Position numbers: made by a program. From Planctomycetota bacterium (GTDB taxonomy: Bacteria > Planctomycetota > UBA11346), in the NCBI GenBank assembly GCA_038231435.1, contig JBBRLJ010000033.1:1-57039 (forward strand): a stretch of DNA of 57,039 nt, given 5' to 3'. Position 1 is the stretch's first letter; the number at the start of each line of letters is the position of its first letter. Below, in pieces: positions 21,001-27,000 of the stretch.

Positions 21001-24000
21001 GGGGATCAAGGGCGTTGGCGCGAAGACTGCGCTCAAGTTGCTCGGCGAATACCAGACGCTCGACAACGTCCTGGTCAATGTCGGCAAGCTCAAGGGCAAG
21101 CTGCGTGAGAACGTCGAGGCCTTCATCCCCAACCGCGAGAAGACCCGCGATCTGATCACCCTGCGCGACGTGCCGCAGATGCCCACGATCGAATCGCTGC
21201 GCATCGATCGCGACTATTCCGGTGACGAAGCGGTCTACGCCTCGTTCGGATTCAGCCGCGCGCGCTTCTTCCCGGCGATCGCCGCGCCGCAGGTCACCAA
21301 GACCCGCTTCCACATCGTCTCGCTGGCCTCGTTCGAGACCTGGCTCGCCGGCGTGCGCGCGCAGGAGAAGCCGCGGCTGGCCATCGGCATCGAATGCACC
21401 TCGGCGGATCCGCTCAGCGCGGAGATCGTCGGCATGTCCTTCGCCGCTGGCGCCATCCCCGGCAAGGATAAAGCCGAGGTGGATGGCGATGGAGCTGTCG
21501 ATGTGAATAGAGAGGCGGTCTACCTGCCCTTCCAGGGCATCGACCACCCGCTGGTCTCATGGGAGGCGGCCTTCCCGATCCTCGAGCGCCTGTTCGCCGA
21601 TCCGTCACTCGGCAAGATCGCCCACGACATGAAGCACCTGGTGCGCGTGCTCGAGCGCAACCGGCTGCGCATCGAGGGGATCGCGGGCGACACCATGCTT
21701 GCGAGCTGGCTGCTCGATCCGTCGCGCGAGAGCCACTCGCTGGATTTCCTCACCAAGGTCTTCCTCGGCGAGGAGAAGGCCCCCTCGACCAGCACGCTCA
21801 CCCCGCGCAACCATCCCACCCTGGCCCAGGTGGCCGTCGCCGCCACCGCCGAAATCGCCTGCGAGGATGCGCAGTGCGCGTGGCGCCTGACGCGCGTGCT
21901 CGAACCGCGGCTCGAGGAGAACCACCTGCTCGCGGTCTACCTCGGGCAGGAGCTGCCGCTCGCGCGCTGCCTCGCGCACATCGAAAGCGCCGGACTGGGC
22001 ACCGATCGCGCCACCCTGCTCGCCACCCAGCGGCACCTCGAAGCCTACCTCGAGCAGGTGATGGCCGCGATCCGCGGACACGCCGGGGCGAGCTTCAATC
22101 CGGCGAGCCCCAAGCAGATCGCCGAGCTCTTATTCGAGAAGCTCAAGCTGCCGGTGCTGCAGAAGACCAAGACCGGCCCCTCCACCGACGCGTCGGTTCT
22201 CGAGGCCCTGCGCCACCACCACGAGCTGCCCGACCTGCTGCTGCAGTACCGCGCGCTGTCGAAGCTCATCGGCACCTACCTCACGCGCCTACCGGACTAC
22301 ATCAACGCCAAGACCGGCCGCATCCACACCCGCTTCAGGCAGACCGGCACCGAGACCGGGCGCCTGAGCTCCGACCAGCCCAACCTCCAGAACATCCCGA
22401 AGAAGAGCGACCTCGGCCGCGAGATCCGCGGCGCGTTCATGCCCGGCCCGGGACGGGTGTTCATCGCCGCGGACTACAGCCAGATCGAACTGCGCGTGCT
22501 CGCCCACCTCTCTGGCGACGCCACCCTCAAGGCAGCCTTCGCCGGGGATGTGGACATCCACCGCTTCGTCGCCGCGCAGGTCAACGGCGTCGACGAGGCC
22601 TCGGTGACCCCGCAGCAGCGCAACGCCGCGAAGGCGATCAACTTCGGCATCATCTACGGCCAGAGCGCCTTCGGCCTCGGCCAATCGCTCGGCATCCCGC
22701 GCGGCGAGGCACAGCGCTTCATCGACGGCTACTTCGCGCGCTTCTCGAGCGTGCGCGCCTACATCGACGGCGTCATCGCGGCGGCAGCGGCCAGCGGCTG
22801 GGCAGAAACGATGGCCGGACGCCGCCGCTTCATCCCCCAGCTCGGCAGCTCCAACCGCAACGAGCGCATGCAGGGCGAGCGCATCGCCCTGAACAGCACC
22901 ATCCAGGGCAGCGCCGCCGACCTCATCAAGAGCGCGATGCTGCGCGCCGAACGCATGCTGCCCGCCGGTTCGATGCTGGTATTGCAGATCCATGACGAGC
23001 TCCTGGTCGAAGCCGAAGCCGCCATCGCCCCAACCGCGGCGGAAGCCCTGCGCGAAGCCATGATCGGCGCCTGGAAGCTCGATGTCGCCCTGGTCGCGCA
23101 GGCGCGTACCGGCAAGACTTGGCTGGAGGTCTCCTGACCAACGAGCCCTCGCCAGCACCCGTGCAGCCACGCGGCGATTCCGCTTGGACCGCCGCGTTCG
23201 ACGCCGAACGTCAATGTCGCGCACGGTTTCCATCGCGGTTGCGGCATGATGCCGCCCGTGATCGAACGATTGGTCGATCGATCCGCGCGCACGCCCCCCG
23301 CCAGCCCGCATCCGCGTCCGCCCAGCCCACTCGCGGCGGCGATCGCATTCCCGAATCCAACCTCTGAACCCCATTCCCTGAACTTCCAAGCCCAGACTCA
23401 CCTGAACCGACTCCCCAGAACGACAAGCACACCATGAATCCCAAAATGCAGCCTCTTCCCTCCGATAATGCCGATCCGCGCGGCTCGCACGCCGATGCGC
23501 CCACCGCCGCCGGCCGTGGTGGCCGCCACCGCCGCGGTCGCGGACGTCCGCCGAAGGAGCGCACCGGCTCCGCGCCTGCCACCGACGAGCCAGTCGATGA
23601 GGATGTCGACGGCGATGGTGGCGATTCCGATGGCGCCTCCTCCGCGGCACCCACCGCACCCCAATCGTCCGATGGCTCGCTCGTAGTGCCACCCGGCAAG
23701 AACGTGGTCATCGGCATCACCGGCGAACCCGGCGCCGGTAAGAGCGCGCTCGCCCGCCAGCTCGCCGGACTCGGCGCCTCGCTCATCGACGTCGACGAAC
23801 TCGGCCACGAGCTGATCGAGACCACGCCGGTGAAGCGCCGGCTGGTCGAGGAATTCGGCGACGACATCGTCAGCGATGAAGGCGAGATCGACCGCCGCAA
23901 GCTGGGCAAGAAGGCCTTCGCCAACGCCGCGAGCACTGCCAAACTCAACGAGATCGTCCACCCCAAGCTCGCCGCCAAGGTCAAGACCCTGGCCAAGAAG

Positions 24001-27000
24001 GCCGGCAACTTCGTCGTCATCGACGCGGGACTGCTCCATGAGCTCGGTCTCGGCGAGCTCTGCACCACCACCATCTACGTGCGCGCCTCTCGCGAGTCGC
24101 GCGTCGCCCGCGTTGCCGAACGCGGCTGGGACGAAGCCGAGCTCGCGCGCCGCGAAACCGCCATCGGCAACGCCGACGTGAGGCGCAAGGCCTGCCAGCT
24201 CGCGGTCGACAATTCCGGCGATCCGGCGCTCCTCGCCGGCTACGCCAAGACCATCCTCGCCCGCCAGCTCGGCATCGACCTGTCGGCCCTGCGCCGTCAG
24301 AAGGAATCGTCGAATCAGGATCGCGGCGCTGAAGACCAGGATGGTGACGAGGACGATGGCGGCGACATGGGCGGCGACAGCCAGCCCGCGCCGGTGCAGC
24401 GCAACGAGCCGCCGCGCGGCGACCAACGCCAGGGCTTCCAGCCGCAACAACGCGATCAGCGCGATCAGCGCGATCAGCGCGAAGGAAATCGCCCCGACCA
24501 GCGCGGCGACGGCCAGCGCGATGGCGACCGCCAGCGCTTCCAGGAGCGTGGCCCTCAGGGCCAACAGCAGGGCGGCCAGCAGGGCGGCGGCCAAGGCGGT
24601 GGACAGGGCTTCAACGATCCCAACCGTCCGGCGATCAAGATCATCCTCGACGACTACCTCAAGCGCATCCTGCCCGATCTCCAGGCCGAGGCGGACAAGC
24701 TCGAGGTCCGCGACGTCAAATGGCAGAAGAAGCACGATCTGATCTGCGAGATCCTGCGCCGCGTCGGCAGCGGTCGCGCAGACGAGATCGTGGTCGAGGG
24801 CTACCTCGAGATGGTCAAGGACCAGCACGCCTACATCCGCAGTCCGATCAACAACTACCTGCCGGTGAACACCGACACCTTCATCGCCCTGGCGCAGCTC
24901 CGCCGCTACGGCCTGAAGGAAGGCATGCACGTCACCGGTACCGCCCGCGTGCCGCGCGGCAACGAGCGCTGCCCACAGCTGCTCGCCATCCAGACCATCA
25001 TGGGTGAGCCGGAGAACAAGCGCACCGCGGTACAGGATTTCGAGCACCTGGTGCCTCTGCACGCACACGATCGCCTGTTCATGGAGCTGCCCAACGATCC
25101 GACCGATCTCAGCCTGCGCATCATCGACCTGGTGGCGCCAATCGGCAAAGGCCAGCGCGGACTGATCGTCGCCCAGCCCAAGTGCGGCAAGACCGTCTAC
25201 ATGCAGAAGATCGCCAAGGCGATCACCACCAACAATCCCGAAGTGGTGCTGATGGTGCTGCTGGTGGATGAGCGCCCAGAAGAAGTCACGGACATGCAGC
25301 GCTCGGTGAAGGGCGAGGTCATCGCCTCCACCTTCGACCAGCATGCTTCACGCCACGTCCAATGCGCCGAGATCGTCATCAACAAGGCCAAGCGCCTGGT
25401 CGAACGCGGCAAGGATGTCGTCATCCTGCTCGACTCGATCACCCGCCTGGCCCGTGCCTACAACACCATGGCGCCGAATTCAGGCCGCATCCTCTCGGGC
25501 GGCATCGACTCGAACGCGCTGATCAAGCCGAAGCAGTTCTTCGGCGCGGCGCGCAAGATCGAGAACGGCGGCTCGTTGACCATCCTCGCGACCGCGATCG
25601 TGGATACGGGCTCCTTGATGGACACGGTGATCTTCGAGGAGTTCAAGGGCACCGGCAACATGGAGCTGGTCCTCGACCGGCGCTTGGCGAATCGGCGGGT
25701 CTTCCCCGCGGTCGACTGCGCCCAGTCGGGCACGCGCAAGGACGAGCTGCTGATCAAGGATCCCGAGGAGCTCAAGCGCGTGTGGGCGCTGCGCAAGTTC
25801 CTGGCCGACCGCAATGGCCAGGACGCGGTGGAGTTCATGCGCTCGAAGCTCAAGAACTTCCGCACCAACGTCGAATTCCTGATGTCGATCGATCCAGAGA
25901 AGATGTCAGGCTGGTGATCAGCCCGCTCCGCGGCGTCAGGGCACGAGCACAGGTGGATCCGATGGGATCCACCCTGCCGGATGCTCGGCGCTGTCGATCC
26001 GTGTGCGCATGAAGATCGCCTCGACTTCGCTTGGCCGCCGGTCGAAAGACGGCAGCGCGAGGTATTCGCGGTAGCAGTCGGCCGCTGCCGCGGCCTCTCC
26101 GGCGAATTCGTGGTGCAGGCCACGGCCGAAGAGCAGCTGAGCCCGCACCCTCAGCTGGGCCGGCTGGGCCATGAACGCCGGCTCATCGATGTCGCCAGCG
26201 ATGAATGCCGCCAGATGCCACAGGCGCTGGCCGTATACGTGCTTCAGCGAAGCGATGATGTGCGCGTACGCCACACGCGCGTCCACCCTCGCCCCGCCGA
26301 TGCGCTCGAGCAGCGCCGGCATGAGCCAACGTGCGAACATCTGATTGCCGTCCTCCATGTCGGGCTGTGCGCGCGCGAACCTGGCGAGCACGCGGGAGCA
26401 GCCGTCGGGGTCGCCCTTGCGGAAATAGGCCAATGCGATCGTGGCGCAGCATCCGGAATCGAAGGGCGCCGCACGCAGCGCGTCCTCGAATCGGCCAAGG
26501 CCGATCAGCGCGCGGGCGCGCGGGGACCCATGGGAATACTCGGCGAGCACCTGATCGTAGCGGCGCAGCCCGAGGAGCGCCCATGAGCGCTGAGTCGATC
26601 CGAAATCCGCCCTATTCGTTTCGACCGGATGGGCGTCCAGGAATTCCTGGAAATGTCCTGCTCTCAACGCGTCATCGTCGAGCAGCCAATGGCGCGGGTC
26701 TTCGGCACGGATCGCTGCATAATCCCCGATGTTGTCCAGCGCGTACAGGCGATCCTCGGTGGAGAAGCGTGCATCGTAGGCGATCTCCCTCGACTTGCCC
26801 ATCTCGCGCATGGCCTGGGCGACGATATGGAGGTCTAGCGGGAAGCGGGCGACGACCTCCTGGAAACGTCCCTGGTGGAACAGGGCATGCGCCAGGAATA
26901 CACTCTCGTGACCCGGGCACGTATCGAGGATGCGCTGGTATGCGCCCATGCGCTCGAGGACCGGATACGACTTGAGCATGAACGGATTCTTGTCGAGCGT

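Follow-up and report, generated by a model that had tools for sequence, protein, structure and literature searches.

Canonical Rho of the E. coli type (TIGR00767) combines an RNA-binding domain with a RecA-type ATPase. PVC bacteria mostly possess a 'Type 2' Rho, represented also in M. tuberculosis, Bacteroides and C. botulinum, whose N-terminal initial or insertion regions are intrinsically disordered, as reported in the NAR 2024 Rho survey (PMC11347177). The main text of that survey contains none of the words CoaE, dephospho, fused and fusion, and CoaE, dephospho, PF01121 and fusion are likewise absent from one of its supplementary files (PMC11347177). Work on Rho centres on disordered N-terminal regions as regulators, and a folded metabolic enzyme on each protomer would constitute a different kind of appendage. 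On the other side, the dephospho-CoA kinase CoaE tolerates fusion at either end, as exemplified by the mycobacterial enzyme with a C-terminal extra domain (6n39, 415 aa) and by eukaryotic PPAT-DPCK (2f6r); we know of no function assigned to the mycobacterial extra domain. The partner in the eukaryotic CoA synthase is the pathway neighbour PPAT, whereas in the fusion described below it is a transcription factor. The literature searches made here retrieved no description of a CoaE-Rho fusion or of an enzyme-fused Rho, in line with the initial annotation of this locus, which had proposed that it would be the first enzyme-fused Rho.

Domain layout of the CoaE-Rho fusion

The window, a stretch of 57,039 nucleotides from a Planctomycetota bacterium (contig JBBRLJ010000033.1), carries at 23434..25917 on the forward strand a gene that starts with ATG and encodes an 827-aa protein (P0001) with no internal stop, as defined by the ORF list, translation, Pfam and NCBIfam. 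The stop-to-stop frame around it comprises 849 aa. The initial annotation had described one polypeptide in which CoaE and Rho are both complete and CoaE is conserved, and the frame and the Pfam and NCBIfam matches agree with that description. Upstream, on the same strand, lies polA (20438..23137), encoding an 899-aa DNA polymerase I with Pfam DNA_pol_A, 5'-3' exonuclease and 3'-5' exonuclease domains.

P0001, all of whose parts are on the forward strand, opens with a disordered tail (aa 1-88, 23434..23697; AF2 pLDDT below 50 at residues 1-81) of both basic and acidic character, in which an Arg-rich stretch at aa 27-42 (nt 23512-23559) is followed by an acidic one. An Arg-rich motif, often KPKRPRGRPPK-like, is present in 44 of 56 fusions as detected with a regular expression of our own. 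The CoaE domain (aa 92-262, 23707..24219) is defined by PF01121, TIGR00152, PDB matches, conserved residues and pLDDT values above 90; AF2 folds residues 85-290 with confidence into a kinase domain, while its pLDDT values predict residues 1-81 and 292-390 to be disordered. A low-complexity linker (aa 288-397, 24295..24624; pLDDT below 50 at 292-390), dominated by Gln, Gly, Asp and Arg (Q25, G23, D17 and R15 among 110 residues), separates CoaE from the Rho part, which is complete at aa 410-819. The Rho N-terminal helical domain (aa ~405-450, 24646..24783) is placed by the start of the TIGR00767 alignment at aa 410, profile position 8, and by AF2 helices at 405-409, 413-422 and 433-444 with pLDDT above 90. 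With PF07498 (Rho_N) P0001 gives no match at E <= 0.01, although some kin are recorded as carrying it. The RNA-binding, OB/CSD-like domain follows (aa 454-526, 24793..25011; PF07497, E 2.8e-17, and genome search), and then the RecA-type ATPase domain (aa 561-765, 25114..25728), which is supported by PF00006 (E 2.4e-27) and by invariant columns in 56 fusions.

Thus, the fusion has the RNA-binding domain, the RecA-type ATPase and putative Walker stretches in common with canonical Rho, to which it adds about 400 N-terminal residues including a folded metabolic kinase. Similarly to 'Type 2' Rho, as portrayed in PMC11347177, it has additional disordered, low-complexity sequence on the N-terminal side, in which R, G, D, Q and N abound. 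In contrast to 'Type 2' Rho, where that same source describes the extra regions as intrinsically disordered, the fusion holds a folded CoaE (pLDDT above 90) between two disordered stretches. With stand-alone CoaE (PF01121; 1jjv, 1vhl, 2grj, 6n39) it shares a full-length match, the P-loop, the catalytic Asp and the lid Arg, although its CoaE has no stop codon of its own and is joined C-terminally to Rho. Most of the inspected CoaE frames from unfused planctomycete loci have no counterpart of the 88-aa disordered N-terminal tail of the fusion.

Conservation of the kinase, Rho and linker regions

PF01121 matches P0001 with 110.3 bits (cut-off 27) over profile positions 2-176 of 180 at E 1.1e-31, reproducing the match at aa 92-262 for which an E-value of 3.5e-32 had been given earlier. 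The CoaE equivalog TIGR00152 reaches 94.7 bits (cut-off 65.55), and the domain matches the PDB CoaE chains 6n39, 2grj, 1jjv and 1vhl. A P-loop of the GxxGxGKS form extends from G97 to S104 and includes the ATP-binding Lys, K103. In the alignment of 56 full-length fusions G94, G97, G100, G102, K103, S104, D121 and R226 are invariant and L200 is conserved in at least 90%; the invariance of the P-loop and D121, originally noted in 13 aligned fusions, therefore holds in 56. In mycobacterial CoaE, mutagenesis identified as critical the ATP-binding Lys14, the catalytic Asp32, Leu114 of the dpCoA cleft and Arg140 of the lid, according to PMC3019153. Through alignment to PDB 6n39 these residues correspond to K103, D121, L200 and R226, respectively, with a shift of 8 in residue numbers, inferred from the P-loop, between M. 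tuberculosis and the 6n39 chain.

In the organism's own genome (5.2 Mb, 108 contigs, 87.64% complete) the profile search matched CoaE once and Rho_RNA_bind once, in each case within the fusion frame, so that the earlier statement that the only CoaE lies in the fusion is upheld for this 87.64%-complete sequence. Because it is the sole CoaE found in the genome and in the class, the domain probably still converts dephospho-CoA and ATP to CoA. CoaE scores in the GTDB class of the organism are ~95-126 bits versus 120-190 in other Planctomycetota, and Rho_RNA_bind scores 44-68 versus ~90-123 bits.

The Rho equivalog TIGR00767 matches with 569.3 bits (cut-off 509.45) at aa 410-819, profile positions 8-413 of 415, and thus spans only about half of the 827-aa protein, as the initial annotation had pointed out. 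Residues P582, K583, G585, K586, T587 and D612-E617 are invariant in the 56 fusions; we take P582-T587 to be Walker A and D612-E617 to be Walker B. The Rho part would presumably still form a hexameric RNA translocase. In the Rho tree it sits on a long branch of 0.68.

Linker length ranges from 9 to 118 aa among the 56 fusions, some having linkers of 9-22 aa only, and its sequence is unconserved. Met is absent from the linker in 46 of 56 fusions, and V and L are rare there. It occupies the place where unfused planctomycete Rho has its disordered N-terminal region. The linker, put at ~190 aa in the initial annotation, is no special feature, given both the lengths of 9-118 aa and the matching disordered region that unfused Rho already has. 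Sequence comparison and structure prediction indicate that the linker is dispensable and disordered. An Arg-rich tail precedes CoaE in this class (44/56), whereas in unfused Rho the basic tail stands directly at the Rho N-terminus. The architecture was therefore remodelled after fusion by more than the loss of a stop codon.

Distribution of the fusion and of the coaE-rho pair

The fusion is fixed across the whole GTDB class, having been seen in 40 of the 48 genomes examined, the window's own included, and in all but one of 18 genera (17). For 41 of 43 above-cut-off CoaE places of the class, the same open frame, on the same contig and strand, also holds a Rho_RNA_bind place, and the remaining two belong to genomes without any Rho match; no stand-alone CoaE was found among the 40 class genomes showing the fusion. 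A search of 5.8 billion proteins with residues 85-285 returned 62 matches besides the query, 61 of which carry PF01121 and PF07497. The same counts had been reported before, together with the claim, equally sustained, that the fusion is conserved in many relatives which their sources call simply 'Rho'. Logan contigs from three further runs of one study show 0 differences from the window; X3 (24089-24612) and X4 (23709-24337) span the CoaE-to-linker junction and X2 (24291-24877) spans the linker-to-Rho junction. Because the contigs of other runs match with 0 differences and the same architecture occurs in 40 of 48 class genomes, the fusion is not an assembly artefact. The class consists of a single family.

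Across the phylum the two genes are neighbours. In a 201-genome Planctomycetota sample rho lies directly downstream of coaE on the same strand in 127 of 129 evaluable CoaE places, with a CoaE-to-Rho_RNA_bind gap of 231-1657 nt (median 499 nt, 127 places); the window's own gap is 574 nt. Frame-by-frame inspection of 36 unfused loci revealed that the coaE frame often touches or overlaps the rho frame, whose first ATG falls at -20 to +60 nt from the coaE stop in 19 loci, while in four both genes are in one frame with a lone stop codon between. As expected of an operon pair, coaE and rho are separate, adjacent and co-oriented in related genomes. In a control of Actinomycetota and one spirochaete (787 kb), CoaE was found in none of 65 rho loci. 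polA is directly upstream in 10/10 fused loci related to the window and in 12/20 unfused loci of other families. The polA-coaE-rho cluster is ancestral, and the coaE-rho pair is phylum-wide in Planctomycetota.

The long frames in other families, which had been left uninspected, resolved into four true fusions and eight pairs of separate adjacent genes. In-frame fusions occur in planctomycete families f23 (two genomes), f42 and f55, those of G150 (f55) and G092 (f42) being known from one MAG each; the fusion recurs in two or three other planctomycete families. The f55 fusion retains the ancestral Rho start MAKAAKKKT inside its linker. In Akkermansia/Akkermansiaceae MAGs 264 clusters were found, and both domains are present in all 120 listed. 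These proteins (P0063 and kin, ~632 aa) resemble the window fusion in having CoaE followed by Rho. They differ from it in sharing just 30% identity in the CoaE part, in lacking an N-terminal tail, with CoaE from residue 3, and in a short linker. The fused rows of the Rho tree form three separate, well-supported groups, and the Akkermansia/Akkermansiaceae fusion is of independent origin in another phylum.

Origin of the fusion and alternative readings

We favour, with a probability of about 0.7, an in-frame merger of the adjacent, co-oriented coaE and rho genes into one gene for a bifunctional protein. A merger of neighbouring essential genes was the alternative that the initial annotation had named against its own reading, and it matches the context of 127/129 adjacency, abutting frames and recurrent fusions. 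The kinase would have been joined to Rho when the coaE stop codon was lost or when the frame changed where stop and start abut, and the pre-existing disordered N-terminal region of planctomycete Rho would have become the linker. Flexible tethers might then attach six kinase domains to the N-terminal crown of the Rho ring. The fusion would ensure equimolar co-expression, mechanistic cross-talk being unnecessary, and would have been fixed early in the class-level lineage and inherited vertically. Against a purely neutral merger, coaE-rho adjacency of 127/129 may be compared with polA-coaE adjacency in 12/20 unfused loci; the contrast suggests that the coaE-rho link itself may be under selection, something that a purely neutral merger leaves unexplained.

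A rival reading is functional coupling, in which CoaE would be a true partner of Rho in PVC bacteria and the CoaE domain or its dpCoA/CoA/ATP occupancy would tune RNA capture or ring closure by Rho, or read dpCoA-capped 5' ends; termination would then be tied to CoA and energy status. We regard this as unlikely, even though several observations speak for it: near-universal adjacency across the phylum (127/129), at least three solid independent fusions (a classic 'Rosetta stone' signal for interacting proteins), linkers of 9-22 aa in some fusions that put CoaE next to the N-terminal domain of Rho, the site of first RNA contact, and the remodelled architecture with the basic tail now N-terminal of CoaE. 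However, adjacency and translational coupling suffice for frequent fusion without function, most members have a long, variable and disordered linker, and the CoaE residues remain those of an ordinary kinase. No sign of the proposed link between termination and the CoA pool appeared in any comparison made here. The phosphate that CoaE adds goes to the 3'-OH of the adenosine ribose, a position that in dpCoA-initiated RNA bears the phosphodiester bond to the following nucleotide. Phosphorylation of dpCoA-capped 5' ends by the kinase, as suggested initially, is chemically excluded on established knowledge because the target 3'-OH is occupied, and just a cap-reader role would remain. A broader version makes CoaE a conserved physical or regulatory Rho partner across the PVC superphylum, with its ligand state (dephospho-CoA, CoA or ATP) or dpCoA-transcript recognition gating RNA loading on the crown, so that the phylum-wide pairing and the repeated fusions would stem from selection for such a complex; it is unlikely and, if true, would link the cofactor and energy pool directly to genome-wide termination. 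Class-wide fixation, re-arisen fusions and near-universal pairing together make a testable candidate link between metabolism and termination.

The merger might instead be genetic only, yielding two separate proteins through an internal translation start or linker proteolysis. The ancestral Rho start kept in the f55 linker, the 473-aa internal-start Rho annotated by NCBI in several Akkermansia MAGs and the general protease sensitivity of disordered linkers are compatible with this, but 46 of 56 class fusions lack Met in the linker, where V and L are also rare, and linkers of 9-22 aa leave scant space for an internal start signal, making it distinctly improbable. The stretch was found in no RNA run, a result that weighs on neither side. 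That the CoaE-like domain has lost kinase function, serving Rho merely as a structural or nucleotide-binding accessory, would suit the lower CoaE and Rho_RNA_bind scores of a fast-evolving lineage; the invariant catalytic residues and a TIGR00152 match above the equivalog cut-off render it highly improbable, as does the fact that no other CoaE was found in the 40 fusion-bearing class genomes, where CoA synthesis would lack its last step. The chance that a MAG frameshift or mis-assembly joined two genes is virtually nil: the single-MAG fusions of G150 and G092 could each be a sequencing error, yet the same open frame recurs at 41 places in 40 genomes and 17 genera of the class, 61 protein clusters from several sources have both domains, and the contigs of other runs are identical to the window.

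The names given by the sources, 'Rho' or the 473-aa internal-start Rho that NCBI annotates in several Akkermansia MAGs, leave CoaE unannotated, and metabolic reconstructions of these MAGs would therefore wrongly report a gap in CoA biosynthesis.

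Architecture and conservation of the CoaE-Rho fusion

The window encodes at 23434–25917 (+) one reading frame of 827 codons that starts with ATG, as given by both the ORF list and the translation. Pfam places dephospho-CoA kinase (CoaE) at residues 92–262 (E 1.1e-31, profile positions 2–176 of 180), followed by the RNA-binding domain of the transcription terminator Rho (Rho_RNA_bind) at residues 454–526 and a RecA-type ATPase at residues 561–765. The NCBIfam Rho equivalog scores 569 bits over residues 410–819 (cut-off 509), and the CoaE equivalog TIGR00152 passes its cut-off of 65.55 with 94.7 bits. 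In an AlphaFold2 model with 56 homologues as input, the kinase block (residues 85–290) and the Rho N-terminal and RNA-binding region (approximately 400–530) are confidently folded with pLDDT above 90, while the ATPase part displays mixed confidence. Residues 1–81 and 292–390 have a pLDDT below 50 and are thus predicted to be disordered. A complex prediction placing the CoaE domain (85–287) on the Rho body (398–827), run without controls, gave a score of 0.25 and a mark of 0.32, values that speak neither for nor against binding.

The source genome (5.2 Mb, 108 contigs) is 87.64% complete, and its profile search returns one CoaE and one Rho_RNA_bind match, both inside the fusion frame. The claim of the initial annotation that this is the only CoaE of the genome therefore holds as a single match at that completeness. 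Its single-frame fusion also stands, on the domain matches and on contigs of three additional runs, all from one study, which display 0 differences across both the CoaE-linker and the linker-Rho joins. An assembly artefact is ruled out by these contigs together with the same architecture across genomes of the class. A look-up of RNA runs containing the stretch listed none.

Conservation of the two halves was assessed in an alignment of 56 full-length fusions. The P-loop residues G97, G100, G102, K103 and S104 are invariant, as are D121, R223, R226 and R230. Lys14, Asp32, Leu114 and Arg140, critical by mutagenesis in mycobacterial CoaE according to PMC3019153, correspond to K103, D121, L200 and R226 of the fusion through an alignment to PDB 6n39, with L200 conserved in at least 90% of the rows. 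The stretches read as the Walker A and Walker B motifs of Rho are likewise invariant, together with many further ATPase columns. With the critical CoaE residues and the Rho motifs invariant or nearly so, both halves look functional at the level of sequence.

A class-specific tail of 17–115 aa precedes CoaE and, according to our own regular expression applied to the N-termini (P0003–P0061, fusion proteins), carries an Arg-rich motif in 44 of the 56, often KPKRPRGRPPK. In the window this Arg-rich stretch lies at 23512–23559 (+), residues 27–42, within the disordered tail, and resembles an AT-hook. Unfused planctomycete relatives carry a basic tail at the Rho N-terminus, Lys-rich and of the MAKAAKKKT type, and most of their inspected CoaE frames leave little upstream room for a tail, eight GC-rich long frames being uninformative. 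The linker between the halves spans 9–118 aa, is rich in Q, P, G, D and R and displays no sequence conservation. Its place is that of the disordered and charged N-terminal stretch of unfused planctomycete Rho, and it fits the disordered N-terminal region of the Type 2 Rho reported for PVC bacteria in a 2024 survey that covered 2730 genomes (PMC11347177).

Spread within the class of the window

The GTDB class of the source genome comprises one order and one family, with 48 genomes in 18 genera. Among its 43 CoaE places above cut-off, 41 have contig, strand and open-frame length in common with a Rho_RNA_bind place, and these fused places are distributed over 40 genomes and 17 genera. The other two CoaE places belong to genomes without any Rho match (G033 and G015), and two further genomes (G028 and G006) match Rho but not CoaE, the frames being 446 and 487 aa long; all four look as if cut by contig ends. 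Stand-alone CoaE was not seen by profile search in the 48 genomes. The large protein search reproduced the earlier count of 62 matches besides the query, 61 of them with both domains. Similarly, all 14 evaluable loci of planctomycete metagenome-assembled genomes (MAGs) in the genome collection are fused, a fifteenth (L011) being cut and left out.

Genomes of the class with a Rho_RNA_bind match have one each except G010, which has two. This member of the family of the window displays two CoaE-Rho fusion frames, of 998 and 826 aa on contigs C38 and C24, which could reflect duplication, strain mixing or contamination (3%).

A full-text literature search returned no description of a CoaE-Rho fusion. 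The terms CoaE, dephospho, fused and fusion are absent from the main text of the 2024 Rho survey (PMC11347177), and CoaE, dephospho, PF01121 and fusion from one of its supplementary files. The passages found in a review (PMC12258240) speak of disordered insertions only, and the Methylacidiphilum genome paper (PMC2474590) holds no remark on coaE-rho in PVC bacteria, its matches to 'rho' being other words. The architecture is real, clade-wide and apparently undescribed.

The coaE-rho pair and its recurrent fusion

Profile searches for CoaE and Rho_RNA_bind in 201 genomes of Planctomycetota with a completeness of 90% or more, 12 genomes being searched again, listed 150 CoaE places, and 127 of these are followed, on their own contig and strand, by a Rho RNA-binding domain 231–1657 nt further downstream. 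The gap has a median of 499 nt and measures 574 nt in the window. Two places, in G138 and G197, have no Rho domain downstream, and the 21 without any listed Rho place were left out of the adjacency count. In 36 unfused loci from many families, inspected frame by frame, the end of the coaE frame adjoins or overlaps the rho frame, whose first ATG lies −20 to +60 nt from the coaE stop in 19 loci. In four of the 36 (L113, L117, L121 and L134) coaE and rho share a reading frame and are separated by just one stop codon; read-through at these loci would yield a fusion protein, which a single point change would make permanent. CoaE was found in none of 65 control rho loci, from Actinomycetota and one spirochaete.

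The polA gene lies directly upstream in the window, in 10/10 fused loci related to it and in 12/20 unfused loci, and the ancestral order is therefore polA-coaE-rho, with the coaE-rho link held far more strictly than the polA-coaE link. The order in Chlamydia trachomatis is probably also polA-coaE-rho. A STRING link that connects Rho to coaE and polA in that species, quoted in PMC8762339, agrees with this order. Many of the sampled genomes have a second Rho_RNA_bind match, and a few a third, pointing to a second Rho paralogue at another genomic place in many Planctomycetota.

Twelve long frames around CoaE in other families, of the kind left open in the initial annotation, proved to be of two kinds. 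Four, in G069 and G126 (family f23), G092 (f42) and G150 (f55), truly join a full CoaE to a full Rho in one frame, with Pfam domain matches obtained for G069, G092 and G150. In the other eight the genes are neighbours but separate, and the stop-to-stop frames are merely long in GC-rich DNA. The Rho parts were placed in a quick IQ-TREE maximum-likelihood tree of 57 rows with SH-aLRT support, from which loci L096, L103 and L106 were dropped as too short. The fused proteins form three groups, namely the class of the window (support 100), f23 with f42 (support 98), and G150, which nests together with two unfused proteins from its family (support 100), and the starred branches force at least three state changes. 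The fusion in G150 is, judged by its sequence, a recent event, since its linker still opens with the Lys-rich start found at the Rho N-terminus of its unfused kin. As G150 and G092 are represented by one MAG each, these two fusions could be errors.

A further origin lies outside Planctomycetota, in Akkermansia MAGs, where the 632-aa protein P0063 carries CoaE at 3–184 and Rho at 264–573. Its kinase part, used as a query, matched 264 clusters; both domains occur in all of the best 120 of the 264, and the named organisms among the relatives listed are Akkermansia sp. or Akkermansiaceae. NCBI records for other Akkermansia MAG proteins, P0064, P0190, P0193 and P0218 among them, give a 473-aa Rho with an internal start and leave CoaE unannotated; other gene callers give 629–644-aa CoaE-Rho proteins for the same genes.

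In the Rho tree the class of the window (window and loci L003–L017, against L029, L034 and L051) sits on a long branch of 0.68 and groups with Actinomycetota rather than with other Planctomycetota (SH-aLRT 91, not starred). Its Rho is about 59% identical to that of Mycobacteriales and 47–61% to that of other planctomycetes. Long-branch attraction, GC attraction or an old transfer could lie behind this grouping.

Proposed function and neighbouring genes

We favour a bifunctional fusion that requires no cross-talk between its halves (probability about 0.7), best explained as the Rosetta-stone merger of a gene pair that is strictly conserved. The protein would work both as a kinase and as a hexameric terminator, with the kinase domains probably suspended from the N-terminal crown of the Rho ring. 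Functional coupling of CoaE and Rho, advanced in the initial annotation, appears unlikely; in its favour stand a strictly conserved pair, the repeated origin of the fusion, the very short linkers of some fusions and the remodelled tail in the class of the window, and this bolder hypothesis is within reach of ordinary biochemistry. Production of two separate proteins, through internal initiation or cleavage of the linker, is more improbable still; the linker of 46 of the 56 fusions holds no Met.

The action of the kinase on dephospho-CoA-capped RNA, also put forward earlier, fails on established chemistry. CoaE phosphorylates the 3'-OH of the adenosine, and in RNA initiated with dephospho-CoA this position bears the next nucleotide, so that the caps cannot be phosphorylated by CoaE. 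The CoaE domain may instead serve as a cap reader.

The surroundings of the fusion gene include trmD (tRNA m1G methyltransferase) at 18326–19027 (−) and a diacylglycerol-kinase-like gene at 32719–33864 (−). No Pfam family matches the ORFs at 13473–16175 (−, 900 aa) and 16763–18193 (−, 476 aa) at E ≤ 1e-5. Convergent to the fusion gene are two very large genes for Ser/Thr protein kinases, at 25936–29523 (−, 1195 aa, with a weak TPR match) and 29268–32756 (−, 1162 aa), whose ORFs overlap as listed.
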